A stretch of DNA of 64,000 nt, taken from the NCBI GenBank assembly GCA_964613055.1, contig CAZTGD010000006.1:5340-69339 (forward strand). Direction: 5' to 3'. The position numbers and the translations under genes are program-made. The notes beneath the pieces were generated by a model that had not been told where the DNA came from, did no database searches, and worked only from the letters and a program-made list of their open reading frames with translations. Each line of letters starts with the position of its first letter. Positions within the stretch are counted from its first letter, which is position 1. The stretch comes from an uncultured Caldisericales bacterium. Its GTDB lineage: Bacteria > Caldisericota > Caldisericia > JAAYUI01. Below are positions 15,532 through 52,207 of the stretch, piece by piece.

Positions 15532-16878
15532 CTAATCAACAGAGCCTGCCCATACGGCAACCAGCTCATCTTCTTGAAGTCTAAAACAGACAGACAGATT
15601 TGAATCACCTGGGAATCTCAACTCGAATCGATTACTGCCGGCTGGCAACCATGTTCCAATAATTGCTGTAAAATCTCCATTGGCAACTTCCGGGTTACTT
15701 GCAAACCCAAGTTCCCTTGTCCATGTGTACGTATTACATACTAAATCTCTGTACTCAAGATTTATCCCAAACACATCATCATATTGTACTACTGACAAAT
15801 TTTTCGGGAATACATCTATATTGTGTTGTGAGAGAATCTTGTTGTCTGAAAGGTCAATTACTACGAGCTTGTAACCAGTTGAAGAACATATAACCGTTGC
15901 AATCGTTTGTTCATCAATAAAGTCAATTGGACTCGCTTCACCATCAACGTGATTGAAAGCGCCCAAAGCCCACTTACCTTCCCATATTGGTTTTACAGAG
16001 TCACCGTCCAGCTCAACAACCTTTTGCCTACCTTCAGTTGTTATGTAATTCCAAATTGTGGTTTTGTCTGTTTTTCGACCATGAAAGGCTACATTTCCTT
16101 TGTATGTAGATACTACTTTATTATCGTTTATAAGCTGACAACTGCCTTCTTGAAAGGTGGTCAGTGAAATGTCATCATCAAACTCTCTAGCTCTTGGATA
16201 ACTCCAGAAGGGTCTCGAATCCATCCATTCCACTTCTTCAAGTTTTAACATAGCGTCAGTTAATGAGCCAAGGGAACAGACACCATAATCCCCATTATCA
16301 GAGCATACTGCGAGTCCAACTATGTCTACAAAGTTTGTATTCTCGTTAAAGCCTGCCAAAGGCATTATCTTTGTCCAATCTCCCGTTATAGGAGTCTCTT
16401 CCAGGTCAAATGTATGTGTTTCACCAGTGACAATGGAGGAGATCAAGCAAGTTGCATCAGACGCTTCTGGAACTGTTCGGATTCGGAATCCTTCATTGGT
16501 GAGAATGGGCTTGTGTTCAGCATCCACCTCTCTCTCGGTATCAAGCTTAATCGTGTATCTGTTGTCATCGCCCTTCATAACATCGACGAATACTCTTTTT
16601 GGAAGATAACCCACATGCGATACTTCAACATCTATTACACCTGGTTCTACTATGAGCTCATTAATAGGTGCGATATGAGTTGAGTCTTTGATAGAGACAG
16701 TGGCATTGTCTGGAACTGTAAAGATGGTTAATGTAGTTTCAGACTCACACGCAACAAGTAGAACACAAGCCACCAACGAGAGTGCCAACCACCATCTCTT
16801 AAACAGCGTACCCTTTAGATAGTTAGATAATTTACCGGAAAATACAGAAAGATGTGACATCAATCCACCTTGAACCAC
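15532..16878 (-). CDS. Secreted lipoprotein with an N-terminal PEGA-like domain
   Basis: Lipobox LVAC. PEGA-like pattern (FTVPDNATVSIKD...VSHVGYLPKRVFV). The N-terminal extension before the signal peptide suggests a later start. Confidence 0.5.
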   Translation of the reverse strand: MVQGGLMSHLSVFSGKLSNYLKGTLFKRWWLALSLVACVLLVACESETTLTIFTVPDNATVSIKDSTHIAPINELIVEPGVIDVEVSHVGYLPKRVFVDVMKGDDNRYTIKLDTEREVDAEHKPILTNEGFRIRTVPEASDATCLISSIVTGETHTFDLEETPITGDWTKIMPLAGFNENTNFVDIVGLAVCSDNGDYGVCSLGSLTDAMLKLEEVEWMDSRPFWSYPRAREFDDDISLTTFQEGSCQLINDNKVVSTYKGNVAFHGRKTDKTTIWNYITTEGRQKVVELDGDSVKPIWEGKWALGAFNHVDGEASPIDFIDEQTIATVICSSTGYKLVVIDLSDNKILSQHNIDVFPKNLSVVQYDDVFGINLEYRDLVCNTYTWTRELGFASNPEVANGDFTAIIGTWLPAGSNRFELRFPGDSNLSVCFRLQEDELVAVWAGSVD

Positions 16879-18287
16879 TCGATGAATTTCTGATACTCCA
16901 TTTCGTATCTGCCATCTTCATTCATCAACTTTATATTGAAGAAGTTGGTTTCACCTATGTATATCGTGACTATCTGGTTTGTCTGCTCTTCGTTGATTTC
17001 AAACTGAACAGCATCCTTGTCACCAAGCTTAACATGCTTCATCTCTCCAACATTCATACCAGGATCTTCCTGATAGAAAGAGTACATGATTTCGTTATCT
17101 ATACCGGAATATGTTGAAGCATCCTGGACGTCTATAGAAATGAATGAACTGTTAGAATTACCTGGGGGAAGAACAAAGGATTGAAGGTTTGAGACTTCAT
17201 CAAACGACCACCCTGCAGGAAGTGTTGCAACATATGTATCGGTTACTGCCTTCTCACCCTTTGGAACGGACTGATTCCCGTTTGTTTTATCCGGGTTGGA
17301 GTCCTGGTTCGAATCGTTTGCATTATCTCGATCTTCTCTGGCAATCTGACCAGGGTCCTTGTCCATAAAATAGGTGAATGAATGGATTATCTCGTTCATT
17401 ACATCATCTTCAACGGAATTGTGTACTGACAATACGAGCACCTTGCCCTTGAGTGGCATGTAGTATGATGAGTATCCATCAGCATCATCAGATCTAATCG
17501 AGGTATGTGTAAACACCTTCATTTCAGCAGAGGCTTTGTATTCATCAGAGCAATTCTCATCAAGCCACGATACAATTGAAGAGGGGGCTGATGGATTGGC
17601 AGATGGATAAGGGTAATCGGTTACTGTAAGGGCTGGTACGCCATCAAAATCGATAAACTCGATCAAGTTGTCTGTCTTTTCTATCTCCCAATCACTGTTA
17701 TAGTTCATAAACCAAAACTCGTTATCAAATATATCAAACTGTTGATTGTCCTGCCGTTGGGCGACATCTTCATATTTCCATTCTGTGATGATTGGCTTGA
17801 ATGTTCCACATGAAGCTTTTGCCTCCGCAAATTCACGGGCTTTATATTTGCCTGGGGAAACCTGCATTACATATACTGCACCGGTGATCGGGACAAAAAC
17901 TATAAGCCCCTTGCCGTTGTCATTTCTCGTCTCTATCCATCTCGATGGAATCGTCTCTTCGGCTTCTTCAGCTTTCAAAGGCAGAGATTCAAGTTTATCT
18001 GATATTACACTTTGATCACCTGTCATCATTTCAACAAGGGAAGAGGAGATTGAATTAATATAACGGAAACTAGAGTTCTTGTCTTCAACAACCCCATACT
18101 GAAGCATCATTCCACTGCTAACAATCCTTACTGCAGATTCCTCCTTATCAAGATCCCATTCTGATGGGTAATCAAACGAAAACAGATCACCATTATAACT
18201 CTTTGAAAGATTGATTTCCTTCGATGTACAGGAGGAAATCAAAATCATCACTAGCATCACGGCAATGACCTTGAAAATGTTTCTCAT
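16860..18287 (-). CDS. Lipoprotein, three tandem modules of the local paralogous family
   Basis: Lipobox ISSC. Modules begin FSFDYPSEWDL / FWFMNYNSDWEI / ATLPAGWSFDEV. Family C-motif DVMNEIIHSFTYFMD. Confidence 0.55.
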   Translation of the reverse strand: MRNIFKVIAVMLVMILISSCTSKEINLSKSYNGDLFSFDYPSEWDLDKEESAVRIVSSGMMLQYGVVEDKNSSFRYINSISSSLVEMMTGDQSVISDKLESLPLKAEEAEETIPSRWIETRNDNGKGLIVFVPITGAVYVMQVSPGKYKAREFAEAKASCGTFKPIITEWKYEDVAQRQDNQQFDIFDNEFWFMNYNSDWEIEKTDNLIEFIDFDGVPALTVTDYPYPSANPSAPSSIVSWLDENCSDEYKASAEMKVFTHTSIRSDDADGYSSYYMPLKGKVLVLSVHNSVEDDVMNEIIHSFTYFMDKDPGQIAREDRDNANDSNQDSNPDKTNGNQSVPKGEKAVTDTYVATLPAGWSFDEVSNLQSFVLPPGNSNSSFISIDVQDASTYSGIDNEIMYSFYQEDPGMNVGEMKHVKLGDKDAVQFEINEEQTNQIVTIYIGETNFFNIKLMNEDGRYEMEYQKFIEWFKVD

Positions 18288-18329
18288 AATCTCTCTCCTT
18301 CGTTTATAATGTTAACAGGATTTAAATTT

Positions 18330-18833
18330 TTATTCAAGGTTGGGTTTTTCAATATATTTGACTGAAGAAAGAACAATCCTCGCTCCTTCACTGAGTTTGT
18401 TGTTAAAATTCCCATAGGTAAACACGTATGCATCATCATCAAATGTGATAATATAGGAATGTGTTATTATGTTTTGTGTTATTGTTATCTTAGCGTATTT
18501 ATTCTCACCGAATTGAACTTCTTCTGGTTGAGAGATATTATCCAATTCATCCTGTACTTTTTTAGCAAAGTCCATGGATGGTAATTGAATATCTTCGATG
18601 AGTTGAACATCGATCACAAACGTATCTCCTGAGGTTCTGTTCGATTCAAGCGTTAAGGACTCCCCTTCCCCACTACTTACAACCCAATCCGCAGGTCTGT
18701 TGAACACGATGTTTTCAAAGACCTGCTCGGCTGTTTCAATCTCGCTTGTAAAGAAGTTATTTTCGCCACCACATGAAATAAAACAGGATATAACTATTAA
18801 GAAGAAAATAAGAGCAGTCGAGACTCTTCTCAT
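18330..18833 (-). CDS. Lipoprotein, single-module member of the paralogous family
   Basis: Lipobox FISC. IVFNRPADWVV start motif. Confidence 0.55.
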   Translation of the reverse strand: MRRVSTALIFFLIVISCFISCGGENNFFTSEIETAEQVFENIVFNRPADWVVSSGEGESLTLESNRTSGDTFVIDVQLIEDIQLPSMDFAKKVQDELDNISQPEEVQFGENKYAKITITQNIITHSYIITFDDDAYVFTYGNFNNKLSEGARIVLSSVKYIEKPNLE

Positions 18834-19396
18834 CTAAGCACCTTTATTGAATCTAGTAGGGAATCTAGCTCTTGGGTATTCTCCGGTACACCAGTGACAC
18901 TAATTAAAACTATATTCCCGTCTTCAGTGTTTGTTACATATTGCCACAGTTGTGTTTGTGAGTCAGAACCAGAAATAGTTGCAATAAGCTCTTGAAACAC
19001 AACATTGCTTGGATTTGGATCACGTGTATTCAGTTGTTGTGGGTTTGATGCACCTCGAGCGGTAGTGTCAATATATTGCTTGGCATTCATTATACCGCCA
19101 GTGTCGATAAACTGTATTGTTACACCTGATATCCCACTATCTTCATTCATCAGAGACATTGAAATATTAGATTCGTTTCGATTAACAATCGACCAACCAT
19201 CTGGCATAACAAACTCAATGAAGGAATTACTGATCTTGTTTGCATCTTTATCATAGGAGTTTTGTCCCAATGAAATCGTTTTCTCATCAGTGACATCGAT
19301 ATCTGCTCTTTCAGTCTTCTCTGTTGTGCATGAGGTGATAAACACTGACAAAACGAGCATCAGGCAAACCATCAATGTTATTGGCTTGTTATTCAT
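18830..19396 (-). CDS. Lipoprotein, paralogous family
   Basis: Lipobox ITSC. FIEFVMPDGWSI start motif. C-terminal LDSLLDSIKVLR. Confidence 0.55.
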   Translation of the reverse strand: MNNKPITLMVCLMLVLSVFITSCTTEKTERADIDVTDEKTISLGQNSYDKDANKISNSFIEFVMPDGWSIVNRNESNISMSLMNEDSGISGVTIQFIDTGGIMNAKQYIDTTARGASNPQQLNTRDPNPSNVVFQELIATISGSDSQTQLWQYVTNTEDGNIVLISVTGVPENTQELDSLLDSIKVLR

Positions 19397-19403
19397 ATAT
19401 ACC

Positions 19404-20438
19404 TCACTTCATCTCGATAGTTTTTAATACATACATTGCATCATCGGGGATTCTATTCGACCAGCTAAAAACTGAAATCATTAAAGGTTCTAAGTCATCT
19501 CTTTCTGCAACCAGATGAAACTCAGAATAGCTATCGCTTTTAGATTCAATAAGACGGTACTTGATATTTCCAAGCTCCATTGAAGTAATTGAGCTGTTGA
19601 GTTGATCTGCTATGCCTTGAGCATATTCTTCAACCTTCATATCATCACCAAGGTTAACATACTGAATTGAAAGGGAGATCAGATCACTGTTCACGCCCTC
19701 TTTCGGTTCAAGAATCGTCAATCTGTCATCATCAGATGTCAGCTCAAGAAAGGGTGATATTTCAAAATCAATATATTTATTTGAGTAAAGCTCTGTTTTA
19801 TCGTCTTGATTCGAGTCTGTGAAATTTCCGTTGCTGTTATCTTGATCTTCTCCATTACTATTGTCGACATCCCCATCATTGCTATCCGATGTGTTATTGT
19901 CATCCTTATCGAAATAATCTGGGTCGGTCAGTCTGAAAGACTTCACAATGTCAACAGCTTTATCAAAGTCACCTTTAGTATTTGGAAGGGGATCTGTGAA
20001 AACAGTAATAATACGTTCTTCCACTGGAACGAATAATGCCACAGCCATTTTTTTATCAGTATTCCCGGTTATCAACACCCCTATGGTATCCTTTTCCTCT
20101 ATCGTTTCTCTTTCCATGTTTACAAGTTCGGACTCGACTGCACTGAGTGCTTCTTCAATTGTGTCAATATCTCCTATCAATGCTCCCTGATGATCTTTGA
20201 CCTCTACTATAACAGAGAAAGGATTTCCACTGATTTCCAAAACATCTTCCATCCATCTCCCCTGAAACCCTTCTGGGCAGTTGATGGCGTAGTAGGGTCC
20301 CAGAAGCACATTGCCGCTATCTTTCTCTACTGGACCTCCGCATGAAACGGTGGCAGGCATCATGAGGACAACAAACAAAATTACCAAGAAAATCCTGGAG
20401 AAAAGCATTTGCCGCATAATCATTTCCTTTCTTCTCAT
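19404..20438 (-). CDS. Lipoprotein, two modules joined by a D/N/S-rich low-complexity linker
   Basis: Lipobox VSCGG. FDKAVDIVKSFRLTDPDYFD C-motif. Acidic linker DSNDGDVDNSNGEDQDNSNG. Confidence 0.55.
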   Translation of the reverse strand: MRRKEMIMRQMLFSRIFLVILFVVLMMPATVSCGGPVEKDSGNVLLGPYYAINCPEGFQGRWMEDVLEISGNPFSVIVEVKDHQGALIGDIDTIEEALSAVESELVNMERETIEEKDTIGVLITGNTDKKMAVALFVPVEERIITVFTDPLPNTKGDFDKAVDIVKSFRLTDPDYFDKDDNNTSDSNDGDVDNSNGEDQDNSNGNFTDSNQDDKTELYSNKYIDFEISPFLELTSDDDRLTILEPKEGVNSDLISLSIQYVNLGDDMKVEEYAQGIADQLNSSITSMELGNIKYRLIESKSDSYSEFHLVAERDDLEPLMISVFSWSNRIPDDAMYVLKTIEMK

Positions 20439-20543
20439 CTGTCATCATTATAGCAAGCAGTGTGTATCAGTTCCAGAATAGCACAAAGCCCTGCCTTATA
20501 CCAGACAGGGCTTTGAATTGTAGTCTGCAAAGTAAATGAAATA

Positions 20544-21662
20544 CTAGTCGAAATAATTGTCGTTGGTGATAACGAATGATTCAACCATTGCGTTAAAGGT
20601 GTCTATGTATTCTTCAGAGTCGATCTCGGAAGTTCCATTTATTATTATTGCCCAGTCATCCATTTCTATGGCGTAGTTATACACAAAAGAATCGTTGAAC
20701 GTTGTCCTTGTTGCAACCGCATTGTGTCCTGAGATAACCATTGTTGTGTCTTCGATCGATCCCATACTCATTGCTGTAGTATCTTTTGAACCTGTTACGG
20801 TGATGAATAGCTCGTCAATCTCAAACATGGTTGTCGTTATCTCATCTGTACTGAAGCTGTTAACCTCTGCTGAAGATGGATGCTTGATTGTGAAGAATTC
20901 ACCTTTGTATGTTTTGCCCAGAGTCATTGCATTGGGTCCAACCTCAATCTCCGTTGGCAGTGAAACATTCACATCTATTTCGTTACCCTCTTCATCTTTG
21001 AATGATGCTGAATATTCACCATCTTTGCTGTCGTTGACACCCTCTTTATCCCCCTGATCAGTATCAGGGTACTCCTCTTCATAATCCTCTTCTATAGGTT
21101 CTGTTTCTATTTCGACTGGTTCAAAATCTATAGATTCGGGCATATCCGTATTGGTGACCCTTAGGGATCTTATTATTTGCCTTGTCAGTTCAACGTCCTC
21201 GTCATTTTTACCCGGCTCATCAGTTATTGCCATAAGCACCCATTCATCAAACGGTACAAACGCGGCAACACCGTGGTAGCCATCATTTTCTCCTTCAATC
21301 CACAAAGCTTTATGTCTGCCCAGCTTCATTTCCTTCTCGGAGTAGTTGGATATCTCTGATTTGATATCGCTCTTAACTGAATCAATTGAACCAAGGTCAC
21401 CCATCTTTGATTCCTTCATTGGCATACATATCGCTTCAATCTTAATGCCGTTCTTGCCTTCGAGGGTTACTCCCCCTTCATGCTCCTTAACTTGAAATTC
21501 AGGTGTATAGCCGATTGTCAGAAATCTTCCATCAAAACTATTCCCAAGGTTAGCGGATGCTTCTGGATTTGTGTTAGCGTTTCCCTCATCTCCTCCACAA
21601 CCCACAACCATTCCCACAGCAATCACTGCAACTAATAAAAAGACCGGAATCCTTTTCATCAT
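20544..21662 (-). CDS. Lipoprotein, two modules joined by an acidic linker
   Basis: Lipobox VVGC. ELTRQIIRSLRVT and FNAMVESFVITNDNYFD C-motifs. Confidence 0.55.
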   Translation of the reverse strand: MMKRIPVFLLVAVIAVGMVVGCGGDEGNANTNPEASANLGNSFDGRFLTIGYTPEFQVKEHEGGVTLEGKNGIKIEAICMPMKESKMGDLGSIDSVKSDIKSEISNYSEKEMKLGRHKALWIEGENDGYHGVAAFVPFDEWVLMAITDEPGKNDEDVELTRQIIRSLRVTNTDMPESIDFEPVEIETEPIEEDYEEEYPDTDQGDKEGVNDSKDGEYSASFKDEEGNEIDVNVSLPTEIEVGPNAMTLGKTYKGEFFTIKHPSSAEVNSFSTDEITTTMFEIDELFITVTGSKDTTAMSMGSIEDTTMVISGHNAVATRTTFNDSFVYNYAIEMDDWAIIINGTSEIDSEEYIDTFNAMVESFVITNDNYFD

Positions 21663-21728
21663 TTCTCCTCTCTGAAGTCAGCTTTTAATCCAGCCAACCA
21701 GAACGTTTTATCGGGAAGCGATTATATA

Positions 21729-22709
21729 TCACCTGGAACGGAATTGCAAATGATCAATTATCCTAATGCTGTATAAAGCTGATCCCGCTGACAAGATCTC
21801 TTTTTTGCTATCAAGACTTTTGGCTACTGCTGAAATGTATCCACCCTCAAGTGGTATCATAATTGATATTGTCTTTTCAGACTCTTTCAGTGTTTCAGTC
21901 CATATACTATCAAACACACCGATATTGATCACTTCAATTGCAATAGCACCGAGGTTCACATCATCCCAGTTCTGAATGCTCATGAGTCTTTCAATATCGA
22001 AAGGATCCATCATCCAATCATCAATCCAATCGATGAAAATCTCAAAACCATCACAATCAATACTCAGTTTGTTGTAACTATTCTCAATGACTGTCCCATC
22101 CACATTTATCTGTAATGCTTCGGTGCTTACCACATTATCGGAAAATGTGAGTTCTCTGTTATGGTCAAATTGTTCGTATTGAGGACCTTCAAGATCAAAA
22201 GAATAGTCCTCTTCAATAATTCTCAAAGACATGACAATCTCCCTGGCAAGCATGAATTCATCTGTAGAGAAGTTTGTTACAGTTGCTATCATCTCCCATC
22301 CATCTCTTGGGATCATGACGGATATAAATGGCCACTCAAACTCATTTTTCGTGTAGGCAAACAAGGCAGAATCTTCACCGAGTTTCACTTCAGACAACTC
22401 ATCCCAGTAATCCTCACCATTGTGCCAAAGACTATAAAGGTCACCTTCCCTACGGTCACTGTTCCAGTTTGAGTAAGCTTCAATTTGAAGATCAGTGTCT
22501 TTTGATGACAGTATTACACCTGGATTCTTTTCGGTTATGCTGAGGGGTGTGAATCCTGCCGGATAATCAAGAGAAAAGAACTCACCATTATAAGTTTTTT
22601 CCAACAAAGGTTTGTCTTGCTCAGAGACACCATTGGATTCATCACTTGAGCAAGAAATTATAACCGGCAATATAAGCGCTGTAGCAAGAAGTAATCTAAT
22701 GGTTTTCAT
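21729..22709 (-). CDS. Lipoprotein, two modules
   Basis: Lipobox IISC. YNGEFFSLDYPAGF start. MLAREIVMSLRIIEEDYSFD C-motif. Confidence 0.55.
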   Translation of the reverse strand: MKTIRLLLATALILPVIISCSSDESNGVSEQDKPLLEKTYNGEFFSLDYPAGFTPLSITEKNPGVILSSKDTDLQIEAYSNWNSDRREGDLYSLWHNGEDYWDELSEVKLGEDSALFAYTKNEFEWPFISVMIPRDGWEMIATVTNFSTDEFMLAREIVMSLRIIEEDYSFDLEGPQYEQFDHNRELTFSDNVVSTEALQINVDGTVIENSYNKLSIDCDGFEIFIDWIDDWMMDPFDIERLMSIQNWDDVNLGAIAIEVINIGVFDSIWTETLKESEKTISIMIPLEGGYISAVAKSLDSKKEILSAGSALYSIRIIDHLQFRSR

Positions 22710-23238
22710 GAAATTGTATCGTCTCGACTATTCTATGCCCGAGTTCAATATCATCTGGCACCTGTGGAGTCAATTCTACCTTAAGAAGTTTGCCATCGAG
22801 AGGGATGGTGTATTCGATTATCTCCACTATACTCATTCCAGATATCCCTCCAGGGATTGCCATCTTGACAAACAATGACCTCACTCCATCAACCTTAACG
22901 TCTTTCATCTCACAATTCATAGCTTTAGATGAAATATCGTTGTACTGAGCATAAAGATTGGTCGTATCTCCCTTAGTCATGCCACTAATGCTTAGCATTG
23001 AAAACCTCAACATTGGACTGATATTGCCAATATCTTTAATGACTATGTCTGCTTCTCCAGACTCAGATACTTGCATTATGGACGGATACTCGACACTGAA
23101 ATATTGATTATCATAGATATTGTCAAAACTCGGAGAACCACAACTTACAAGCAGTGTCAAGGATACCATAATACCTACCATTATCTTTCGAGAAATTATC
23201 ATAGAATATTCAATACACCCAATCAGCAGATCTGTCAA
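22696..23238 (-). CDS. Lipoprotein, single module (the true start is probably the internal Met before the signal peptide)
   Basis: Lipobox LVSCGS. YFSVEYPSIMQV start. LGHRIVETIQF end. Confidence 0.5.
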   Translation of the reverse strand: MTDLLIGCIEYSMIISRKIMVGIMVSLTLLVSCGSPSFDNIYDNQYFSVEYPSIMQVSESGEADIVIKDIGNISPMLRFSMLSISGMTKGDTTNLYAQYNDISSKAMNCEMKDVKVDGVRSLFVKMAIPGGISGMSIVEIIEYTIPLDGKLLKVELTPQVPDDIELGHRIVETIQFHENH

Positions 23239-24625: not shown

Positions 24626-25123
24626 ATGCGGAAGATTATAGTCATCACGATTGTCTCACTATTGACACTTATTTCATGTGGCAGTGAAAAATCCATACCT
24701 GAAGAGCTGAAGTTCTCAAAAACAACATCACTTTACAGGGTGTACTACCCGGAAGGATGGGAAGCCACGATGGGAGCAAACGGCAGTTGTACCATTTCAT
24801 ACAACGATACCGCAATAACCATCCCGTTCCTCATTATTCCAGATGAAAACGCCAAACCGAATGATATTGAAAGCCTCGGTGAGTTGAAGGATGTACTCAT
24901 TCAGAATAATCCAGAAGGTACAACCGAAATAGAATCGATCTCAGGCAAGAAAGCATTGTGGTGGTTTTTCGATGTGAAGGGTGTTGAACTCGCAAGCTTC
25001 ATGTTGCCACTGGATGGCGTTATTTTGACGGGCATGGTCTGGCCAAGTCAGAATGAAGATTTCACATACCGTGAACTGGAGCTTGCCAGGCAAATTGTGG
25101 ACAGTTTCAGGTTGTTGAAATAG
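24626..25123 (+). CDS. Lipoprotein, single-module member of the paralogous family
   Basis: Lipobox LISC. YRVYYPEGWEA start. YRELELARQIVDSFRLLK end. Confidence 0.55.
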   Translation: MRKIIVITIVSLLTLISCGSEKSIPEELKFSKTTSLYRVYYPEGWEATMGANGSCTISYNDTAITIPFLIIPDENAKPNDIESLGELKDVLIQNNPEGTTEIESISGKKALWWFFDVKGVELASFMLPLDGVILTGMVWPSQNEDFTYRELELARQIVDSFRLLK

Positions 25124-33930: not shown

Positions 33931-35862
33931 TTAGCCCTGGAACAATCTTTTAATATTGTCCAACTCTTCCTTTTTAGAAAACACAGTTGCAACATCTCCC
34001 TTCTTCAATACAAAATCGCCTAGGGGAATGTGTGCATTCCCAGCTCTCCTGATCAGAGAGATGATAGCTCCTTTTGGGATCATCAGCTCTTTCAATGATT
34101 TGTTATAGAGCATGGGGTTGGATACCACCAGCTGATCTGCTATGACATTTAAATCCTTCTCTCCCAAAAGGCACAAAGCAGAGCTATGATGAACAATTGA
34201 CTCTATCGTTTGAGCGGCGGAGATTGTTGGACTCATCGCTTTTATGCCCAGCTCTGAAAATGCTTCCATCCTCGATGGCATAGATATAAGACAAATAATA
34301 TCTTTTATTTTGAAGGTTGATTTGGCAATTTGAGCGATCATAAGGTTCTTTGAATCAGAAGAAGTGATAACAATCAGATACTGGGCATCCTCTATACCCG
34401 CACTCCTTAAAACTTTCTCGTCCGTAGCATCCCCCAGGTAGGCTTCAAAGCCCATGCCTTCTGCAATATCTACCTTGTTCCTGTCTATATCAATCAGGGT
34501 CACGCTGTCTCCCCTCTTCTCGAGAAATCTGGCAGTTTCAAACCCAATTGCGTTTGCTCCTATTATAATGATCTTCATTGGAATTACCCCCAGTCTTTTT
34601 GCCAACGGTTTGGCAATGAAGGATACAAATGCGACACTTATTATGATAACACCGAAGACCAGCGCTTTTATTATTGTACTCTCAGCGTTCATACCATGCT
34701 TGCTGAGTTCTACTGCCGCAAGTGACGCTACTGATGCGGCAACAATACCTCGAGGACCAGTAAAAGCGATGTACAGTTTTTCTTTTATATTGACTACCAG
34801 CGTACATGTGACGGTAAAAACCATCAACGGTCTCACCAGGATTATCACTCCAAAGGCAAATACGATACCCATCCAGCCAATTGATGTCATGATTGACAGA
34901 TCGATCGTTGCGGCAAGCACAACAAAAACCATTGAAATAGCCAGGGTAACCAATTCACTCTTGAACTTCAGACAGGCTCTCTTCCCCGCATAAAGCATGT
35001 TGCCCATCACTAAACCTGCCACGGCAGTGCTGATTATACCACTCTCTTTATAGATATATTCGGGGATAGCATAAGCAATCAGTGCTGTGGCAAACGTTAT
35101 GGCAACGGCTGGCCCTATGTCCTTGAGCTTGGTCAGACGAATGGTTGTAACAGCCAACCACCCGGTGATGAAACCCGTGATAGAGCCTATCAATATACTG
35201 CCAACAAAATGTGATACTATGGCAGTCGTTGCTCCTTGAGTGAGAATGAATTCGAGGAGAAGGATTGAGATCACAGCACCGACAACGTCAGCGATGATGC
35301 CTTCTGCAGACATGATCCTTTTGATAGAGGGTAACACGTCTATCCTCTTGAACAGTGGAGTAATAACAGTTGGACCAGTGACCGACAGAATGGCTCCGAT
35401 TAACAGAGACGTTACCCAGTCAAGCGAAAAGAGGTAGTGCGCCAGCACTGCAATAAGAGCGATTGTTATCGGCATACCAAAGACAATCAGATTAACAACT
35501 GTTTTGCTGGTCTCCCTCAATTTCTTGATATCCAATGCCATCGCGCCTTCAAAAATTATCAACCCCACTACAGGGCCGATAATACCACTGGCTATGTTGT
35601 TGAGTTTAGCAGATTCGATAATACCAAAACCAGTCGAACCGAGTAAGAGTCCCGCCAGGATTCCAAACACGAGGTAAAACACGATTGAGGGTAACTTCAA
35701 TTTTGATGAAGCCAACAACCCTATCGCTCCGAGGGCGAATGCCACCGATATTATCATCAGAACCTGCATACTCATCATCTCTATTATACATGAAGCATCA
35801 ATTATTGGGAAGGGGCTTTTGACTTCACAGTATAAAAACTGTATAATACTGTATATAATCAC
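33931..35862 (-). CDS. Monovalent cation:proton antiporter (CPA family) with C-terminal TrkA-N/TrkA-C regulatory domains
   Basis: About 12 TM helices. Rossmann motif KIIIIGANAIGFETARFL. TrkA-C-like tail. The real start is likely an internal Met (MMSMQVLMII...). Confidence 0.7.
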   Translation of the reverse strand: MIIYSIIQFLYCEVKSPFPIIDASCIIEMMSMQVLMIISVAFALGAIGLLASSKLKLPSIVFYLVFGILAGLLLGSTGFGIIESAKLNNIASGIIGPVVGLIIFEGAMALDIKKLRETSKTVVNLIVFGMPITIALIAVLAHYLFSLDWVTSLLIGAILSVTGPTVITPLFKRIDVLPSIKRIMSAEGIIADVVGAVISILLLEFILTQGATTAIVSHFVGSILIGSITGFITGWLAVTTIRLTKLKDIGPAVAITFATALIAYAIPEYIYKESGIISTAVAGLVMGNMLYAGKRACLKFKSELVTLAISMVFVVLAATIDLSIMTSIGWMGIVFAFGVIILVRPLMVFTVTCTLVVNIKEKLYIAFTGPRGIVAASVASLAAVELSKHGMNAESTIIKALVFGVIIISVAFVSFIAKPLAKRLGVIPMKIIIIGANAIGFETARFLEKRGDSVTLIDIDRNKVDIAEGMGFEAYLGDATDEKVLRSAGIEDAQYLIVITSSDSKNLMIAQIAKSTFKIKDIICLISMPSRMEAFSELGIKAMSPTISAAQTIESIVHHSSALCLLGEKDLNVIADQLVVSNPMLYNKSLKELMIPKGAIISLIRRAGNAHIPLGDFVLKKGDVATVFSKKEELDNIKRLFQG

Positions 35863-36706
35863 TTATACAAATGAGATAACCGGAGAATATGTGAGAATAG
35901 TCGATGCCATTTCAGTTCTAGTTTGCACATCACAGATGATGTGGTTGTCTTGGATAATAATATACTCCAGTGTTCTTTCATTGATGAGACTTATACTCAA
36001 CAGTGGTGGCATGATTGATTGGATAAACGCCCTTACTCTCAAATCTATTCCCGTCGACCACCCAGCCGTGCTGTTCAACCATGCTTTATCGCTTGATAAA
36101 GGGATTCAAGGCATTGTTTTCATTGTGATTGTTTATCTCTGCCTGTTCGTCACTGTAAGCATGGTTGAATCTCTACTCTATCCATATGTATTGGATTCTG
36201 TGAGAAACACTCTGCCAGATTTTGGCTGGGATTTCTGGAGGAAATGGAAGAAATTCGCACTATTCTTTATCATGTTCACTCCGATCTGGATACTGTCTGG
36301 ACTACTTGGTTACACAGCAACGGTTATCAGCCAAGGTACAAACTTTCCAACAATTGTTGCTGAACTTATAAAGTTCACCTTGATGTCTGTCCCACTGATA
36401 ATCCTTATCCCCGCGAGATTCTATTACTCTGATGGATACGGTTTTCTTAGATCGATAATGGAGTCACTTTTAAACATACAGAAATATTTTAAGTCAACCA
36501 TCCTGATACTAATTCCTTCAGGATGCATATATGTATTTTTGGTTCAGCTTACGCAGAATTCAATGACTGGCCTACAAACGTTATTGTCTTTTTCACCATT
36601 ATTGTATGCATTGGGTGCTCTTTTCTGGTTTGCCTGGGCTGTTTCAGTATTTTACACCGTTAGAATTTATCAAAACATAAATAGAAACACAGGAGGTTAT
36701 TCATGA
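35819..36706 (+). CDS. Hypothetical polytopic membrane protein
   Basis: Multiple hydrophobic helices. Start uncertain. Confidence 0.4.
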   Translation: MTSQYKNCIILYIITYTNEITGEYVRIVDAISVLVCTSQMMWLSWIIIYSSVLSLMRLILNSGGMIDWINALTLKSIPVDHPAVLFNHALSLDKGIQGIVFIVIVYLCLFVTVSMVESLLYPYVLDSVRNTLPDFGWDFWRKWKKFALFFIMFTPIWILSGLLGYTATVISQGTNFPTIVAELIKFTLMSVPLIILIPARFYYSDGYGFLRSIMESLLNIQKYFKSTILILIPSGCIYVFLVQLTQNSMTGLQTLLSFSPLLYALGALFWFAWAVSVFYTVRIYQNINRNTGGYS

Positions 36707-37578
36707 CAAATTTCTGGCATAGAACACTTAACAGAATGATACCACGTCACGGCGCTGGTCTGTTTGGAGTCGGTTCGGCACTTTCGGCTTCTCTTTACAT
36801 CTCGGTTCTGTTTGCTGAGATAGTATCCACTTTCATCGAGAGTAATAGCGTCTCTATGATCGAAACACTGATCACCTTTGTTACCACTCCAACCATAGAA
36901 GGTGCAATAACTATTCTTATCTTCTCAGTATTGTGGATATTTCTGGGTGCGATAGCACTTGCGGGTGGTTGTCGCTATCTGATTGGATGTGTTGATCCAA
37001 AGCATATAGCCCAAAGAACCTTCTTTAACGGTATTCGATACTACTGGGTGAAAATGCTTAGATACACTGTATTCTTGACCTTCGGTGGACTTTTCTTCCT
37101 AATGCTCTTCTGGATACTCTGGCAGTTGATCGCTGGTATGGTAGGAGTGTTCGTTGTTCTTATTATTGTACTTTTTGTTATCCTGGCAACTGCCTTCTGG
37201 TCAAAACTGGCATTCACTCCTTACTTCATGGTTTCGGGGATGGGCCTGTTCCCCTCTATTGTAAAATCTTGGGGTGCGACAAACAAAAGGATTTGGTCCA
37301 CAACGATACTCAGGTTGTGTCTGGTGATATTCATTTCCATGCCAGTCATGTTTAGATTCACCATAGAACCAGAAGTCATGGTTCCGTCTCTTTCTGTCTG
37401 GCCCTTCGTTGCACTCATTGTATTCGGTTACATCGAACTCATTGTGGTGAGAGGGTACCAGGAATGGCAGGAGAAGGAAAAACTTCCAATGGTTTCATCC
37501 AAGTTTGTAAAGAGTGATGTGCAGATACTGGATATATATGATTCAAATGTAAACGGACCCAGAAGCATGGAATACTAG
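36703..37578 (+). CDS. Hypothetical polytopic membrane protein
   Basis: Several TM helices. ATGA overlap with the upstream gene. Confidence 0.45.
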   Translation: MTNFWHRTLNRMIPRHGAGLFGVGSALSASLYISVLFAEIVSTFIESNSVSMIETLITFVTTPTIEGAITILIFSVLWIFLGAIALAGGCRYLIGCVDPKHIAQRTFFNGIRYYWVKMLRYTVFLTFGGLFFLMLFWILWQLIAGMVGVFVVLIIVLFVILATAFWSKLAFTPYFMVSGMGLFPSIVKSWGATNKRIWSTTILRLCLVIFISMPVMFRFTIEPEVMVPSLSVWPFVALIVFGYIELIVVRGYQEWQEKEKLPMVSSKFVKSDVQILDIYDSNVNGPRSMEY

Positions 37579-37631: not shown

Positions 37632-38108
37632 ATGAGAATTCTTCTAGTTTATGCACTTTGTTTCTTCGCTTTGCTGATATCATGTGACATTCAAACAGAT
37701 TTAAAGCGGGTTGATCTAGATTTCTTCTCTTTTATTTCTCCTGCATCGTTGAATATGGTTGCTAGTGGTGAGGGTGTCTGTCGTTTTGCAGGGAACATTG
37801 GCAGTATAGATCTTTCCTGGTCCTTTGACCAGTTCTCAAGGAAAAACATGCCTGCAAGGGAATCAGGAAGAAAACAACCGGGTGAGGAGATAATAGAATC
37901 CACCAAGGCTACGCTTGGTGACAGGCACATCTGGTGGAACAAAACCCGCATTAACAATATAATAACTGTTAGAATGACAATCCCACTCGACTCAGGCTAT
38001 CTCAAAGCTGAGGGAGTTGCAACTGAAGACAACATTGAACAGATTGAAAGATCTTTAAGGAGTTTAGTAATAAATGATGAGAATTACTTCATTGATAATT
38101 TCGATTAG
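37632..38108 (+). CDS. Lipoprotein, paralogous family
   Basis: Start adjusted to the Met giving signal peptide + lipobox LISC. C-terminal IEQIERSLRSLVINDENYFIDNFD family motif. Confidence 0.5.
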   Translation: MRILLVYALCFFALLISCDIQTDLKRVDLDFFSFISPASLNMVASGEGVCRFAGNIGSIDLSWSFDQFSRKNMPARESGRKQPGEEIIESTKATLGDRHIWWNKTRINNIITVRMTIPLDSGYLKAEGVATEDNIEQIERSLRSLVINDENYFIDNFD

Positions 38109-38679
38109 CCTTATCCTCATTTCCTTAGGTGTTATTACAGGATGTGATAGCTCCGAAGGCAGATTCAGGTATGAAGGTCCATTCTACTCTCTGGAAATGA
38201 GTGACAGTTGGCATATGCACGACTTTGGTGGTGATAACCTGAAGATACACGGATACTACAGGTGTGTCACGTTCAGCAAGAGACCCATTCAGCTTCGGGA
38301 ACTGTCTGAGATAAACCAACTGGAATATGCAATCACATGCGCGAGTATATTTGATTCAACACTCACCCAGGGGGATTTCGAAGCCATTGAGATACCCTCG
38401 CAGATAGCTGGCATAACAATTGTCGAGAAGAAGCAAATAGAGATAGACGGGGTACCCGCCCGGTGGCTCGAGTGCGAAACCACATTTGAAGGTAAACAGA
38501 ACGCGTCTGTTCTTCTGGATGTACCACTGAACAATGGATACATTCAGATTGATTTCTTCGGACCCAAGGGTGATGAGAGCCTGCAAACAGAGGCAAGGCG
38601 TATCGTTAGGTCACTTACAATATCCAATCCAGATTATTTTATTGAGAATACTCAAAAGGAAACATGGAGGACGGAATGA
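38074..38679 (+). CDS. Lipoprotein, paralogous family
   Basis: Lipobox ITGC. FYSLEMSDSWHM start. ARRIVRSLTISNPDYFIE end. Confidence 0.55.
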   Translation: MMRITSLIISISLILISLGVITGCDSSEGRFRYEGPFYSLEMSDSWHMHDFGGDNLKIHGYYRCVTFSKRPIQLRELSEINQLEYAITCASIFDSTLTQGDFEAIEIPSQIAGITIVEKKQIEIDGVPARWLECETTFEGKQNASVLLDVPLNNGYIQIDFFGPKGDESLQTEARRIVRSLTISNPDYFIENTQKETWRTE

Positions 38680-39632
38680 TGAATCTATTAATTGCATACC
38701 CAACAGACGATGAAATGAGAGTCGGTTTTTCCGAAAACAATGACAGCAAACCTGCTTTTCTCTCTATTGGCTATCCTACATCTCATGAGGACTTTGAAAA
38801 TGCAATCAAAGAGGCTTTCAGCGAGATGGGCAATCCAGTATTTGATATTGGTGTGGCATGTTACGGCATGACTCAAAAGACCGACAAACCTTCTATCGAG
38901 TTGACATCCGATGTTATTAAGTCGCTTTCAGCCTGTGAGTATGGAATGGACCCTTCCAATATGACCAGTGTTCTCATCCATGCCCTTAACCCCAACAAGG
39001 CAATACTCGCCTATCCACTAACATATGATTGCCTGTCACCGATTGCTAGACTGTCTGGTATTCCTGAGATTGAAAGGCGCATGGTTGCCAGAACCATGGA
39101 CCACCTGATGGCGGGAGAAGGCAAAAAGACATTGACCGTATATCTCTCGCAAGGTGAAATGTCTGTATGCGCTCAGGATAAGGGCAAGGTTATTGATATC
39201 ACAAACTCCTATGATGGAGAGGGCCCGATGACTCCAACCAGGTCTGGTTTCTTCCAGCAGAAGTGCGTCTATTCCATGGCATTTTCCGGGAAGTACAGCA
39301 GAGAAGAGCTCCTCGATAAGATAAGAGTCAGAGGTGGTCTGCTTGCTTATCTGGGTACATCAGACCTAGATGAAGTATATGGGATGATTGATGGTGATGA
39401 TGAGAAAGCAAAGCTCATCTATGATGCGATGTTATACACCTTGTTCAAGGAGATCGGAAGCAAATCAGCTTGGTTGTGTGGTGATTTTGAGAGTATAATC
39501 CTGACTGGACCTCTTTCTGACAATAAGAGACTTGTTGATGATATTAAGGCTGGCATCACGAAACTTGGTAACGTTTCTGTCAATAATGATCTCTGTGTGG
39601 CAACATTTCTTAGAAGCCAGGGGATAATTTAA
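38664..39632 (+). CDS. Butyrate-kinase-family (ASKHA) paralogue with a degenerate ATP phosphate-1 motif
   Basis: C-terminal two-thirds align well to butyrate kinases (KGKVIDITNSYDGEGPMTPTRSG, FSGKYSREELLDKIRVRGGLLAYLGTSD, ILTGPLS). The N-terminal NPGSTSTK position reads YPTDDEMR instead. Confidence 0.6.
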   Translation: MEDGMMNLLIAYPTDDEMRVGFSENNDSKPAFLSIGYPTSHEDFENAIKEAFSEMGNPVFDIGVACYGMTQKTDKPSIELTSDVIKSLSACEYGMDPSNMTSVLIHALNPNKAILAYPLTYDCLSPIARLSGIPEIERRMVARTMDHLMAGEGKKTLTVYLSQGEMSVCAQDKGKVIDITNSYDGEGPMTPTRSGFFQQKCVYSMAFSGKYSREELLDKIRVRGGLLAYLGTSDLDEVYGMIDGDDEKAKLIYDAMLYTLFKEIGSKSAWLCGDFESIILTGPLSDNKRLVDDIKAGITKLGNVSVNNDLCVATFLRSQGII

Positions 39633-39635
39633 TCA

Positions 39636-40343
39636 ATGAAAGAACCGAGAATAACCATCTTTGCAGGTCCGGTTGGCGCTGGTAAAACAGAGATTTCAAT
39701 CAATTACGCTTTAAAGCTGAAACAGTTTGGAACAGAGGTAGCACTCATAGACTACGATGTCGTAAAACCTTACATCCGAGTCAGAGATGCCGCTGGTATT
39801 CTGTCGGAAAATGGTCTGACAGTGCTGATGCCTGATGGGAAGGTCGCCTTTGCTGATATGCCCATTGTACCTCAAAAGATTTATCAATGGATTGCTGATG
39901 ATTCCAGACATCTTGTTATGGATGTTGGTGGAGACAAGCAGGGATCAACAGCGTTGGGTCAGATAATGCCAAGGCTTTCAGAGGATGAATATGAATTCTG
40001 TCTTGTCATAAACCCATACAGACCATTCACCAATTCCATTGCCGGCATAAAGCGTTTGGCAGAAGAGGTCTCTCTAGGCGCGCGCACCAAATTTGACTCT
40101 ATCGTTGGCAATCCTCATGTAAAGGAAATGACTACAATCAAGGACTTTATGGACGGTCTCAGGCTCATCCGAGAGGCTTCAGCTGAGATGAATCTCCCAA
40201 TCAAGTTCATAGGTGTATCCGAGGGTCTGTATCCACAGGTTAAGGTGGACAGTGTCGATGAGGAGCTACTGCCCATGCAGATGTTTGTTACATATCCATG
40301 GCAGGACAGATGTGAGTGTGTCAATTGGATATACAAGGGGTAG
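39636..40343 (+). CDS. P-loop NTPase (SIMIBI/G3E-like), function unknown
   Basis: Walker A GPVGAGKT. VMDVGGD Walker-B-like segment. No clear NKxD. Begins 4 bp after the buk-like gene. Confidence 0.5.
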   Translation: MKEPRITIFAGPVGAGKTEISINYALKLKQFGTEVALIDYDVVKPYIRVRDAAGILSENGLTVLMPDGKVAFADMPIVPQKIYQWIADDSRHLVMDVGGDKQGSTALGQIMPRLSEDEYEFCLVINPYRPFTNSIAGIKRLAEEVSLGARTKFDSIVGNPHVKEMTTIKDFMDGLRLIREASAEMNLPIKFIGVSEGLYPQVKVDSVDEELLPMQMFVTYPWQDRCECVNWIYKG

Positions 40344-40387: not shown

Positions 40388-40846
40388 ATGAATAGGGTAA
40401 TTGTGTCAATCATACTAGTGACAATTCTTGCAACACTTTTCCTATCTGTATCATGTGGGTGTAATTTGAAAGATGATGATATCAATTCCGACTTAGAAGT
40501 ATTTGCTGAGAAAAGATTGAATCATTTATTAAAAGGTTTCCGTACCGCAGGTTGGAAACTGGGTGAAGATATTACAAAAGAGATAGCAATCGATGGTATG
40601 TGTAACATGATTAACAGTTTTTGTGATATCTTTGGATCGGATTCACATAAGAGTGGGTGTTACAAGCCAATATTTGATGACTGGATACAGTATAAATTAT
40701 ATGAAATCTATATATTAGATGATCGTAGTAGCAGTGATGACATAGGTTTGGAGAGGCTTAGAAGTAGACATCCTGAATTGTATGACAGCGATAGCTGTAA
40801 TGACTGGGAAAGGCTTTTAATACATGAAAGCAAGAAAAAATACTAA
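40388..40846 (+). CDS. Small Cys-rich lipoprotein (AT-rich region)
   Basis: Signal peptide + lipobox VSCGC. Six further Cys. GGAGG SD. Confidence 0.45.
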   Translation: MNRVIVSIILVTILATLFLSVSCGCNLKDDDINSDLEVFAEKRLNHLLKGFRTAGWKLGEDITKEIAIDGMCNMINSFCDIFGSDSHKSGCYKPIFDDWIQYKLYEIYILDDRSSSDDIGLERLRSRHPELYDSDSCNDWERLLIHESKKKY

Positions 40847-46393: not shown

Positions 46394-47398
46394 CTATTCC
46401 TGCCCCTTCACAGTTACAGAATAGTTATGCTCATCCACATGTATTACCGTTGCGACAGTATCGTTTACCACCCAAGCGTTTTCAGGGAGGGCTTCACGTT
46501 TGGTAGGATCAGGCAGTCCACACACGATTATCTCTTTTGGATTTAGCGCATTTATAAATACTTCATTCATACTACCAACCGGAGCACCGTTTGTGGCAAT
46601 AACGACATCGGTCTGTTGTATCTTACCACGCTCAAGCATCTTCTTCTCATCTAGTGAATCTATTTGACTGGTTAACAAAAAGGATATCTCTCCCATCGAA
46701 AAACGTATAACCATCGCGCCATCATCGTCATCACCTGGATTGAGTGGATATAGCACCTCAAACGTAACACCACTAAGGTTCCAGATGGCACCAGCCTTCT
46801 GCTGTTCAGCCATCACACTGTTTTCCCTAGAGGTCCTAAATACATCTGCGATTGCACCTTGACCACTTTTATATCCGGCAAATCCTAGGAATCCAACTGG
46901 AATATCCTGTAGAATGGCTGATGCACCTTCGAATGTCCCATCAATGTTTGAAGGAATCATCAGATAATTCAAAGCGGGAACGTTGTTTTCCTTTAGATAT
47001 CTTCGAACAATTTCCCCTGACTCAATATCACCAGCCCCGTATAGAATAGCAAATTGACCTTTTGATTCAATGAGAACAGGGTTGCCCATGACGGGAATAA
47101 TATGAATATTGAATCCAGAAGTGTCTGACAAACCTGCACCGGGTATATATCTTCTATCAACAGATGAGGTCTTTTTGCCATCAACAGACATCTTGTCACC
47201 AGTCATTGATTCTATTGTTGGCGTTTCATTGATTGATTTCTCCTCTGGAGCTAAATATTCATAGGAGTTGTCACTTACCTCACCGGCAGTGCCATCGGTT
47301 GTTTCATCTTCACCACATGAAACGAGCACCGGCACGGCTATCAGAAGTGTAATTAAGAATGCAATAAATAGCTTTTTCATTGTTCCTCCGCTGATCAT
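46394..47398 (-). CDS. Lipoprotein with a degenerate metallo-beta-lactamase-like (ComEC-C-like) fold
   Basis: Lipobox LVSC. Segment FAILYGAGDIESGEI...NYLMIPSNIDGTFEGASAIL follows the spacing of the MBL HxHxDH/H motifs but lacks the His ligands. Confidence 0.4.
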   Translation of the reverse strand: MISGGTMKKLFIAFLITLLIAVPVLVSCGEDETTDGTAGEVSDNSYEYLAPEEKSINETPTIESMTGDKMSVDGKKTSSVDRRYIPGAGLSDTSGFNIHIIPVMGNPVLIESKGQFAILYGAGDIESGEIVRRYLKENNVPALNYLMIPSNIDGTFEGASAILQDIPVGFLGFAGYKSGQGAIADVFRTSRENSVMAEQQKAGAIWNLSGVTFEVLYPLNPGDDDDGAMVIRFSMGEISFLLTSQIDSLDEKKMLERGKIQQTDVVIATNGAPVGSMNEVFINALNPKEIIVCGLPDPTKREALPENAWVVNDTVATVIHVDEHNYSVTVKGQE

Positions 47399-51600: not shown

Positions 51601-52207
51601 AAACACTGGTATCTATCCAGACCTTCTCAATGTGTGTCCGAGGTTTCCTGACTATCTCTGATGGTATCCACATACCAGCCATATGTGGAGCAGAACCAAC
51701 TGGAAAGATTATGGATGCTTTTGGAAGTGTGTGCTTGTTAATTGGTGTTTTTATTTCTAAACCACTTCTCAAACATGCATTCACATCCTGAACTCCGAGA
51801 ATAACCTTGTTTTTACCATGCATAAGGAGATCAGTCACGTTGAACTCAAAGGGAAGATATCCACCAAGATGAGTGCCAGCCGGTTTACCATTAACCCATA
51901 ACCTTGCTTTGAAGTTAACGGCTGGGAACTTGAGAAACAGCAAATCCTCTCCATCCCATTCAATCTCCCCTTTGTAATACCCACAGTTGAATGGCTCATC
52001 GGCAGTTATCTGTTGAATAAACCAGTTATGAGGGAAGAGTAAAGGTTTCCAGCCATCCTCTGGAACATTATCCAACGTGAGTTTGTCAGCCCATGACGGA
52101 GCGAAAAACTCAAAAACGGGGTCATTGATGACTGTGATCTCCTCACCTTTACCAAAAGGTGGAACTATTTGAAGCAGTGTCAACAATACTACAAGCACAA
52201 CCTTCAT
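48650..52207 (-). CDS. Secreted glycoside hydrolase family 2-like enzyme (beta-galactosidase/mannosidase-type) with extra C-terminal domains
   Basis: Signal peptide. GH2 sugar-binding-domain pattern (ARLWVNGKPAGTHLGGYLPFEFNVT). Acid/base motif NHPSWVIASIENE. Confidence 0.65.
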   Translation of the reverse strand: MKVVLVVLLTLLQIVPPFGKGEEITVINDPVFEFFAPSWADKLTLDNVPEDGWKPLLFPHNWFIQQITADEPFNCGYYKGEIEWDGEDLLFLKFPAVNFKARLWVNGKPAGTHLGGYLPFEFNVTDLLMHGKNKVILGVQDVNACLRSGLEIKTPINKHTLPKASIIFPVGSAPHMAGMWIPSEIVRKPRTHIEKVWIDTSVSNHMICVFADVSVPEEGYGAFTAEVVIETLDGRKVLSLPSSEFEVDRNGGRAELSSSWGNPRLWSPESPNLYNAVVRIKKNNTLIDSLTERFGFREFSIRGSDFYLNGTKIYLRACSKHIWPVESHAKDYAQSLIGRVKSMNANALRLHANPFPEEFLDVADEKGLLIINESSAWTMGDRYDLGSDLFWANLKNTWNEHIYRDYNHPSWVIASIENELLLTGGGVYEGVPDRLEQLGEYVKETSNRLIMFEGDDDPNGCADIYNLHYCHEPSTHHTYPQDAYFFDEEFICGSFPAGPYTWNRDKPMYMGEFLWLPEPMYASSVVLGDVSLEDINRYKMEAKTELFDHYVSAFRVQGVSAFNPWNPLEDGELVASATCELYKPTRFFVIQHDNYHFADRTLDRTVYLQNWSEKPKSIDFKWEFAEDSGKWSGIINPSESKVIEISTKTPPVNTQKNLPLKMNMRSDGEIVHKETHEMHIYPYEFSAPKFQLLDINNAFSKELNHAGFSFEVIKEIDGINGDLPVVVAPNALMKDADLFKLNNKYVILFPQDNLDYIPLRTAGVGKLCRNRFQDGFTTTSWVSDFGSWDADELMRFFAGDNIVARDAFKLINGLPCKPMLCAGTGWGQFYPIVDVPTMGVFSTVAIEQKFTSEPRCGEILSELIRYVDDKTNDSNNTPLVSSKASSIMLSVLGFKSGNNIADPCVYYYGKGCKGVDLKELSAESTVILDGVDDSVLDEMGIDIEYKAEPQKPVGMIPLNKQKFPSLTRFMLANACDYNHGRKALLDSILTGEYESPSGMPMVKINARGYDVDFIVMGHLCLLTSDSKPDLIINNLHWERNWNHPLATLLLELGVKSFPSQQITFSLTESKNLVKIIGEETVFMSNSSATGEFYIDSDSDVVLTFLARQDKAGEENAQLRILVDGQLIESIDISSQQYESKQISFRQTQGNHIITFMFVNDLYDQEAGLDRNLWIKAPQLFVTGNN

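Follow-up and report, generated by a model that had tools for sequence, protein, structure and literature searches.

What are eight adjacent lipoprotein genes, all on one strand, doing in the genome of an uncultured Caldisericales bacterium? They occupy 15532..23238 of a 64,000-nucleotide stretch of contig CAZTGD010000006.1 (assembly GCA_964613055.1), which was analysed at its full length and is called the window here, and they appear as eight successive minus-strand open reading frames (ORFs; g1 to g8) of 448, 475, 167, 188, 344, 372, 326 and 180 amino acids (aa). An earlier note on this DNA had read them as contiguous members of a paralogous lipoprotein family with at least 11 members in the window, and had suggested that such a lineage-specific expansion could be a variable surface or immunity-like repertoire. 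We found that the array of eight back-to-back lipoprotein genes is real, with a lipobox in each, and that the family is real as well. However, g1 lacks the module that defines the family, which leaves 10 genes with 15 modules of ~140–150 aa each; seven of these genes are contiguous (g2–g8, 12 modules). A profile search among the window ORFs found no additional family member. The novelty lies in a divergent branch within a known domain superfamily, whose genes here form a probable operon that is both old and stable (coordinates in Table 1).

A shared module unites ten lipoprotein genes

Signal peptides were stripped before comparison, to avoid inflated scores, and the proteins were cut into 15 candidate modules, lettered a to c along each protein. 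An iterated profile united 11 of these modules, each entering at an E value of 7e-8 to 6e-5; entry values into the core profile were 7e-8 for g8, 2e-5 for g10, 3e-5 for g11 and 6e-5 for both g7b and g6b. Pairwise scores were 3e-9 for g7a–g6a, 1e-8 for g5a–g6a and 4e-4 for g10–g11, and scores against the family hidden Markov model (HMM) reached 1.8e-38 for g2a, 1.7e-38 and 1.1e-26 for g5, 2.2e-44 and 1.2e-37 for g7, and 6.4e-44 for g9. The top unrelated ORF among the 285 in the window scored 4 bits against the family profile. Reversed and shuffled sequences gave 0 matches to this profile, as did 72 non-Caldisericota loci (~1.4 Mb), and we therefore conclude that the similarity, which profile E values show to be significant, is not compositional. 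The pairwise and profile results confirm that these are paralogous lipoproteins built from one to three copies of one module, and the family profiles also confirm the three members that had been proposed outside the array (g9, g10 and g11).

The divergent modules g2b, g2c, g3 and g4 were tested with profiles that shared no sequences with the target. Comparison with the family by hhalign gave 94.8% for g2b and 57% for g2c, and a broad profile matched these two modules at 4e-15 and 8e-14. The g3 orthogroup aligned with a disjoint family profile over 126 columns, the whole module (hhalign 90.5%, E 1.3e-6), and its own profile matched L011_14048, a two-module member, in the second module at 2.3e-8. 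For the g4 orthogroup, the alignment with the disjoint family profile covered the N-terminal half only (hhalign 67.7%, E 4.9e-5), and the g4 profile matched P0012, an orthologue of g5, at 3.8e-7 in a full-length match to its second module. Both results were positive only with this larger disjoint profile; against just the 11 window modules, hhalign gave 0.8% for the g3 orthogroup and 24.8% for the g4 orthogroup. Rounds 2–3 of a leave-out iteration took in signal peptides, so that the model grew to 214 positions, and E values from those rounds were not used. The possibility that g4 and g3 represent a split two-module gene was unsupported, as both resemble second modules. Single-linkage clustering of the matches at 1e-6 did not separate subfamilies.

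The sequence features by which the module had been recognized are present in the translations. These include the aromatic motifs FSFDYPSEW (g2), FFSLDYPAGF (g7), YRVYYPEGW (g9) and FIEFVMPDGW (g4), exactly as they had been quoted, and the C-terminal helix motif, for example AVDIVKSFRLTDPDYF, ARRIVRSLTISNPDYF and FNAMVESFVITNDNYF. The low-complexity linkers, acidic or rich in D, N and S, connect modules in g2, g5 and g6, again as had been described. Every module has an acidic isoelectric point (4.05–4.8).

All 10 members, as well as g1, carry a signal peptide and a lipobox cysteine, as judged by a PROSITE-type pattern that requires an N-terminal signal peptide ending in [LVI][ASTVI][GAS]C. The lipobox forms in the members and g1 are ISSC, FISC, ITSC, TVSC, VVGC, IISC, LVSC, LISC, LISC, ITGC and LVAC. 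The pattern was found in 13 of the ~62 window genes, and orthologues retain it: the lipobox is kept in every array gene of three related loci (L009–L011) and in 72 of 90 database proteins. A search confined to the 64-kb window found neither lgt nor lspA. Two further lipobox proteins in the window, at 40388..40846 (152 aa) and 46394..47398 (334 aa), fall outside the family and match no Pfam model.

The modules are highly divergent PsbP_2-type domains

Scans of the window proteins against Pfam, NCBIfam, PADLOC and PHROGs returned nothing significant for the family members. The best Pfam score, for g2 against PsbP_2, was 13.4 bits (E 0.082), so that no window protein reached the gathering threshold of 27 bits, and the other members had no match; g9 scored 15 bits (E 0.014) against NCBIfam PSII_PsbP, which has a cut-off of 60. 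Searching the Protein Data Bank (PDB) by sequence with the family profile likewise gave no match. We obtained an AlphaFold2 (AF2) model of g6a from an alignment of 11 window paralogues, with a predicted local distance difference test (pLDDT) score of 88.5 and a predicted template-modelling (pTM) score of 0.82. Along the model, five strands lead to a helix and four more strands to the C-terminal helix. It forms the alpha-beta-alpha sandwich of the PsbP/Mog1 superfamily, an antiparallel sheet with a helix on either side, and strongly matches solved structures. Plant PsbP was the top Foldseek match in the PDB (E 4.5e-5, TM ~0.6), and the runners-up were Tsi3, BT_1490, CyanoP, Apa, DcrB, LpqN and Eag chaperones; other fold neighbours were TplEi, Tli4 and START.

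A bridge at the sequence level led to the same superfamily. A word-indexed search with the module alignment found 1 protein only, and an exhaustive search with a window-only profile found 89 proteins at E<=1e-3 among 1.84e9 cluster representatives, true PsbP_2 outliers included. Twelve of the 89 pass the Pfam PsbP_2 model, 11 pass PsbP and 1 passes DcrB. For example, P0043 matched the window profile at 3.3e-10 (1.84e9 proteins) and PsbP_2 at 5e-23. Alignment of the 11 window modules with 18 modules of PsbP_2 proteins gave an hhalign value of 97.7% (E 1.4e-12, 138 columns) and paired the fSfxYPxgW strand and the axxiVxSf helix on both sides. The guess of a PsbP/DcrB-like architecture was correct, because the Foldseek match of g6a and the bridge to PsbP_2 proteins both support it: the modules are highly divergent PsbP_2-type domains of the PsbP/Mog1 alpha-beta-alpha sandwich fold.

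PsbP_2 (PF18933) belongs to the superfamily of PsbP (PF01789) and DcrB (PF08786), and shares with the window modules the N-terminal f-S-f-x-Y-P-x-g-W strand and the C-terminal a-x-x-i-V-x-S-f helix. Multi-module proteins occur there too. One of them, the metagenomic P0064 (L095 8001..10952), is a 983-aa secreted protein of six PsbP_2 modules that matches PsbP_2 at 2e-63 and also matches DcrB PF08786, and tandem multiplication of the domain is therefore not confined to Caldisericia. The window proteins differ from PsbP_2 in falling below the Pfam threshold and in forming a fixed operon of 7–8 paralogues. We know of no established function for PsbP_2, and a literature search on Caldisericota lipoproteins or PF18933 function found nothing; the accession appears in one paper on an unrelated subject. 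Named database members of the family carry the label 'hypothetical protein [Caldisericia bacterium]'. In this barely studied phylum, ~ten such 'hypothetical proteins' in 64 kb can now be given a fold and a superfamily. An entire branch of PsbP_2-like domains is overlooked by the current Pfam and NCBIfam models; a seed alignment built on the present modules could close the gap.

The array is old and stable

The neighbouring genes place the host in Caldisericia; the window ornithine aminotransferase (OAT) is 82–84% identical to the OAT of Caldisericia metagenome-assembled genomes. In three other genomes (L091, L004 and L005), whose OAT is 82–91% identical to that of the window, the gene order histidine kinase–g1–g2–g3–g4–g5–g6–g7–g8–OAT–g9 is the same, module for module. 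More distant Caldisericales (L010 and L011, OAT ~70% identical) have seven family genes immediately downstream of OAT on one strand, and in both the array likewise closes with a three-module gene and, after it, a gene for a g1-like lipoprotein. L009 has six family genes and lacks this terminal pair, and L006–L008 have no family member within 10 kb of OAT. Three-module orthologues of g2 include P0008 (95%), P0027 and P0037 in addition to those in L010 and L011. Orthologues of g9 are 58–76% identical in L004, L005 and L091, and 32–39% identical in L009–L011, where they lie inside the array. The members outside the array also have orthologues, namely P0001 (91%) and P0026 (52%) for g10, and P0017 (54%), P0062 and P0079 for g11.

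These comparisons contradict a recent lineage-specific expansion into a variable repertoire, given that three other genomes share the colinear array and more distant relatives carry one like it. Both checks that had been proposed for such an expansion, copy-number variation and an elevated ratio of non-synonymous to synonymous substitution rates (dN/dS), came out against it: copy number is constant among the four colinear genomes, and gene-wide dN/dS is 0.10–0.45 in the family genes. The window is 99.9–100% identical to public contigs from different samples, including GCA_054921975.1, and strains at 97–100% identity and genus-level genomes have the same gene set. Identity between paralogues is 11–28%. 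We found just one DNA-level repeat in the array, a 47-nt match at 77% that falls on the conserved N-terminal motif, and no tandem repeats; together with the low paralogue identity, this suggests that the duplications are ancient and that conversion is not ongoing. The array is not adjoined by an effector, recombinase or mobile element, and there is no PADLOC or PHROGs match. The family is real, old and stable, and it is not a variable surface repertoire.

Compared with strains at 97% and 93% identity, dN/dS was 0.30 for g2, 0.45 for g3, 0.15 for g4, 0.36 for g10, 0.10 for g11 and 0.54 for g1, all gene-wide values with small substitution counts; for neighbouring genes, one comparison gave 0.11–0.17 and a second, which had few substitutions, gave 0.44. 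These values are those of real genes under purifying selection, perhaps somewhat relaxed. Identity between the window and L091 is 53–67% for the array genes, 76% for g9 and 72–97% for the flanking genes, and the corresponding values for L004 and L005 are 29–49%, 58–59% and 59–88%.

From the promoter-proximal end (g8) to g1, the intergenic gaps are -14, 66, 105, 7, -4, 42 and -1 nt. This operon-like spacing suggests that the cluster is probably co-transcribed.

A non-family lipoprotein closes the cluster

The last gene of the cluster, g1, gave no HMM match to the family and an hhalign value of 0.2%. Its score against Pfam PEGA (PF08308) was 16.3 bits (E 0.009, aa 48–113), short of the threshold of 20.8 bits, and the protein consists of this weak PEGA-like N-terminal region followed by ~330 aa that are predicted to be all-beta. 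Only 3 homologues were found among 5.8e9 proteins, none of them annotated, and a PDB sequence search gave no match. In L004, L005, L091, L010 and L011, g1 orthologues are found at the corresponding end of the array, and g1 always follows the three-module family gene. The g1-like lipoproteins are 410–442 aa long (also L010 17608..18840 and L011 17458..18696), with several invariant cysteines and the motif FDLEETPxTGDW.

A possible docking role at the cell envelope

From fold, location and conservation we infer, with moderate confidence, the most likely role of this conserved PsbP-fold cluster: it would encode non-catalytic docking or scaffold lipoproteins that sit at the cytoplasmic membrane, on its outer face. 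Export by Sec, followed by lipidation at the lipobox cysteine, would bring the proteins to this face. According to the literature, Caldiserica are without lipopolysaccharide (LPS) genes and have been discussed among lineages in which the outer membrane was lost (PMC5007114; bioRxiv 10.1101/2021.05.31.446380); the proteins would then be tethered at this membrane face. The modules would act as docking or scaffold units like the extracytoplasmic fold members CyanoP, LpqN and DcrB, with the sheet face as the putative binding surface for other envelope proteins or lipids, and the acidic low-complexity linkers would hold distal modules away from the membrane. Because the gene set is fixed, the paralogues may have distinct, complementary partners or may co-assemble with g1, rather than serve as interchangeable variants.

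To our knowledge, no characterized member of the PsbP/Mog1 fold is an enzyme. CyanoP and PsbP, which have 9–12% sequence identity to the family, dock on photosystem II, and CyanoP is likewise a lipoprotein. Caldisericia are non-phototrophic anaerobes, and we found no photosystem genes in the window, so that the partner would be something other than photosystem II. DcrB, an enterobacterial inner-membrane lipoprotein, is single-copy and single-domain, and no window protein matches PF08786. The mycobacterial LpqN/Mtc28/Apa family is represented among the fold neighbours, but the window proteins have no detectable sequence match to its Pfam family and no MmpL or resistance-nodulation-division (RND) transporter nearby; multi-module architecture and operon organization are, as far as we know, not features of the LpqN family.

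Several observations weigh against a docking or scaffold role. No partner gene was found, and g1, the candidate partner, has no annotated relatives; its AF2 model, built from 3 sequences, had a pLDDT of 45.6 and was too poor to use. The structure model covers one module, g6a, and the fold also includes toxin-immunity proteins and cytosolic chaperones, so that fold alone does not determine function. Scans of the array for consensus promoters and terminators gave results at chance level, and co-transcription is judged from gene spacing. We also considered a functional link to the adjacent two-component system and rejected it, as L010 and L011 do not have this system beside the array. Finally, orthologues in the array diverge 2–3x faster than their neighbours, which fits loosely constrained or externally driven surfaces equally well.

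The array could be a fixed immunity battery in which each paralogue neutralizes a different envelope-targeting toxin of a competitor, much as the periplasmic immunity proteins Tsi3, TplEi and Tli4 act against type VI secretion system (T6SS) effectors. In favour of such a battery, the genes are tandem paralogues whose products are secreted proteins or lipoproteins, and they evolve faster than their flanks; all three of these immunity proteins are among the fold neighbours; Tsi3 and TplEi bind toxins and have the same fold and the same extracytoplasmic location, and fold relatives of Tsi3 have been described (PMC3792639). However, PsbP, CyanoP and LpqN are equal or better structure matches, and the nearest Pfam family by sequence is PsbP_2, which is not an immunity family. 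Unlike the Tsi3 and TplEi systems, the array has no cognate effector and lies in no variable island. No effector, Rhs, VgrG, secretion gene or recombinase is found beside it in 7 genomes, its layout, gene order and gene number are constant across genera with no sign of turnover, and dN/dS stays below 0.5 in the family genes. We consider an immunity battery improbable. A variable surface repertoire, with paralogues alternately expressed or diversified against phage or predators, would account for the many acidic, presumably surface-exposed paralogues and for array orthologues that are less conserved than the flanks, and yet it is highly improbable. Neither DNA repeats nor conversion tracts were found apart from the single short repeat, the array lacks the hallmarks of such families (near-identical repeats or cassettes, invertible elements, or copy-number differences between close relatives), contigs from different samples are almost or fully identical, and dN/dS is low; moreover, the tight spacing and overlaps imply joint rather than alternative expression.

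Another explanation overlaps with docking or scaffolding rather than opposing it. The modules could be carriers that shuttle hydrophobic or other small ligands between membrane and wall, as has been proposed for LpqN with a trehalose-monomycolate mimic. LpqN interacts with MmpL3, MmpL11 and the lipid mimic (PMC7458404), and both LpqN and START among the fold neighbours are compatible with this function. Against it, no transporter is conserved beside the array, and the two membrane proteins encoded upstream of g10–g11 are not kept in L093 or L094. We regard a carrier function as possible, though unlikely.

More speculatively, the seven paralogues (12 modules) and g1 might form one hetero-oligomer on the membrane, either an envelope organelle or an anchoring lattice, which would be specific to Caldisericia and could, for instance, serve the sheath-like outer layer described for Caldisericum. 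This is a long shot. If true, it would account for the retention across the class of one gene set, its order and the terminal pair of three-module gene and g1, despite fast sequence drift. With its seven or eight lipoproteins of one fold and a conserved partner, the fixed operon offers a handle on the unusual envelope of Caldisericota. As function remains inferred, no major question is opened or settled.

Gene coordinates and start sites

Two genes of the array are probably shorter than first read. For g8, the TTG start at 23238 appears to lie too far upstream, with 23181 as the probable true start, and g1 probably starts at 16860. These shorter forms are favoured because identical public contigs call the starts at 23181 (161 aa) and 16860 (442 aa). 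P0006 is identical to g8 over 161 aa, with the same start called on 13 contigs. An exact-sequence look-up of g6 gave no match, and the public gene calls use a different start codon. The neighbours of the array include a two-component system, an aminotransferase, ArgS and purine-synthesis genes.

Table 1. Genes of the lipoprotein array and further family members in the window
Gene	Coordinates	Strand	Features
g1	15532..16860	-	442 aa from ATG 16860 (GTG 16878 gives 448 aa); non-family lipobox protein; last in cluster; start overlaps g2 stop by 1 nt
g2	16860..18287	-	three modules, aa ~21-172, 173-312 and 338-475; D/N/S-rich linker at aa ~313-337
g3	18330..18833	-	one module, divergent, 'second-module' type
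g4	18830..19396	-	one module, most divergent member; 4-nt overlap with g3; motif FIEFVMPDGW
g5	19404..20438	-	two modules; D/N/S-rich linker at aa ~178-215
g6	20544..21662	-	two modules; E/D-rich linker at aa ~176-245; first module (g6a) is the family hub
g7	21729..22709	-	two modules, without low-complexity linker
g8	22696..23181	-	one module; first gene of cluster; 161 aa from ATG 23181; 14-nt overlap with g7
g9	24626..25123	+	one module; beyond the OAT gene; most conserved member
g10	37632..38108 (start alternatively 37596)	+	one module; first of a separate pair
g11	38074..38679	+	one module; overlaps g10 and the next gene (acetate-kinase family)

Other genes in the window

The separate pair g10–g11 opens a four-gene group (window 37632..40343); after it, with stop and start codons that overlap, come genes for a short acetate-kinase-family protein (316–322 aa) and a ParA/CbiA-like P-loop ATPase (233–235 aa). 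This order of g10, g11, acetate-kinase-like and ParA-like genes is kept in L092 (5541..8240) and in L093 (1765..4607) and L094, and it holds even where g11 is only 32% identical and the upstream genes differ. Directly upstream of the pair in the window, 35819..37578 encodes, side by side, two multi-pass membrane proteins (295 and 291 aa) with no Pfam match; these are present in the close relatives L001–L003 and in L092, and absent from L093 and L094.

Elsewhere in the window, 59895..63533 encodes a 1212-aa protein with N6 DNA methylase, DUF559/REase_MTES_1575 endonuclease-like and Type ISP C-terminal specificity domains, a combination that looks like a single-chain restriction-modification enzyme. 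A 1185-aa secreted enzyme of glycoside hydrolase family 2 with a C-terminal CBM60 is encoded at 48650..52207, and a 714-aa secreted protein with Ig-like domains at 57746..59890; the domain content of these two products suggests extracellular polysaccharide use.

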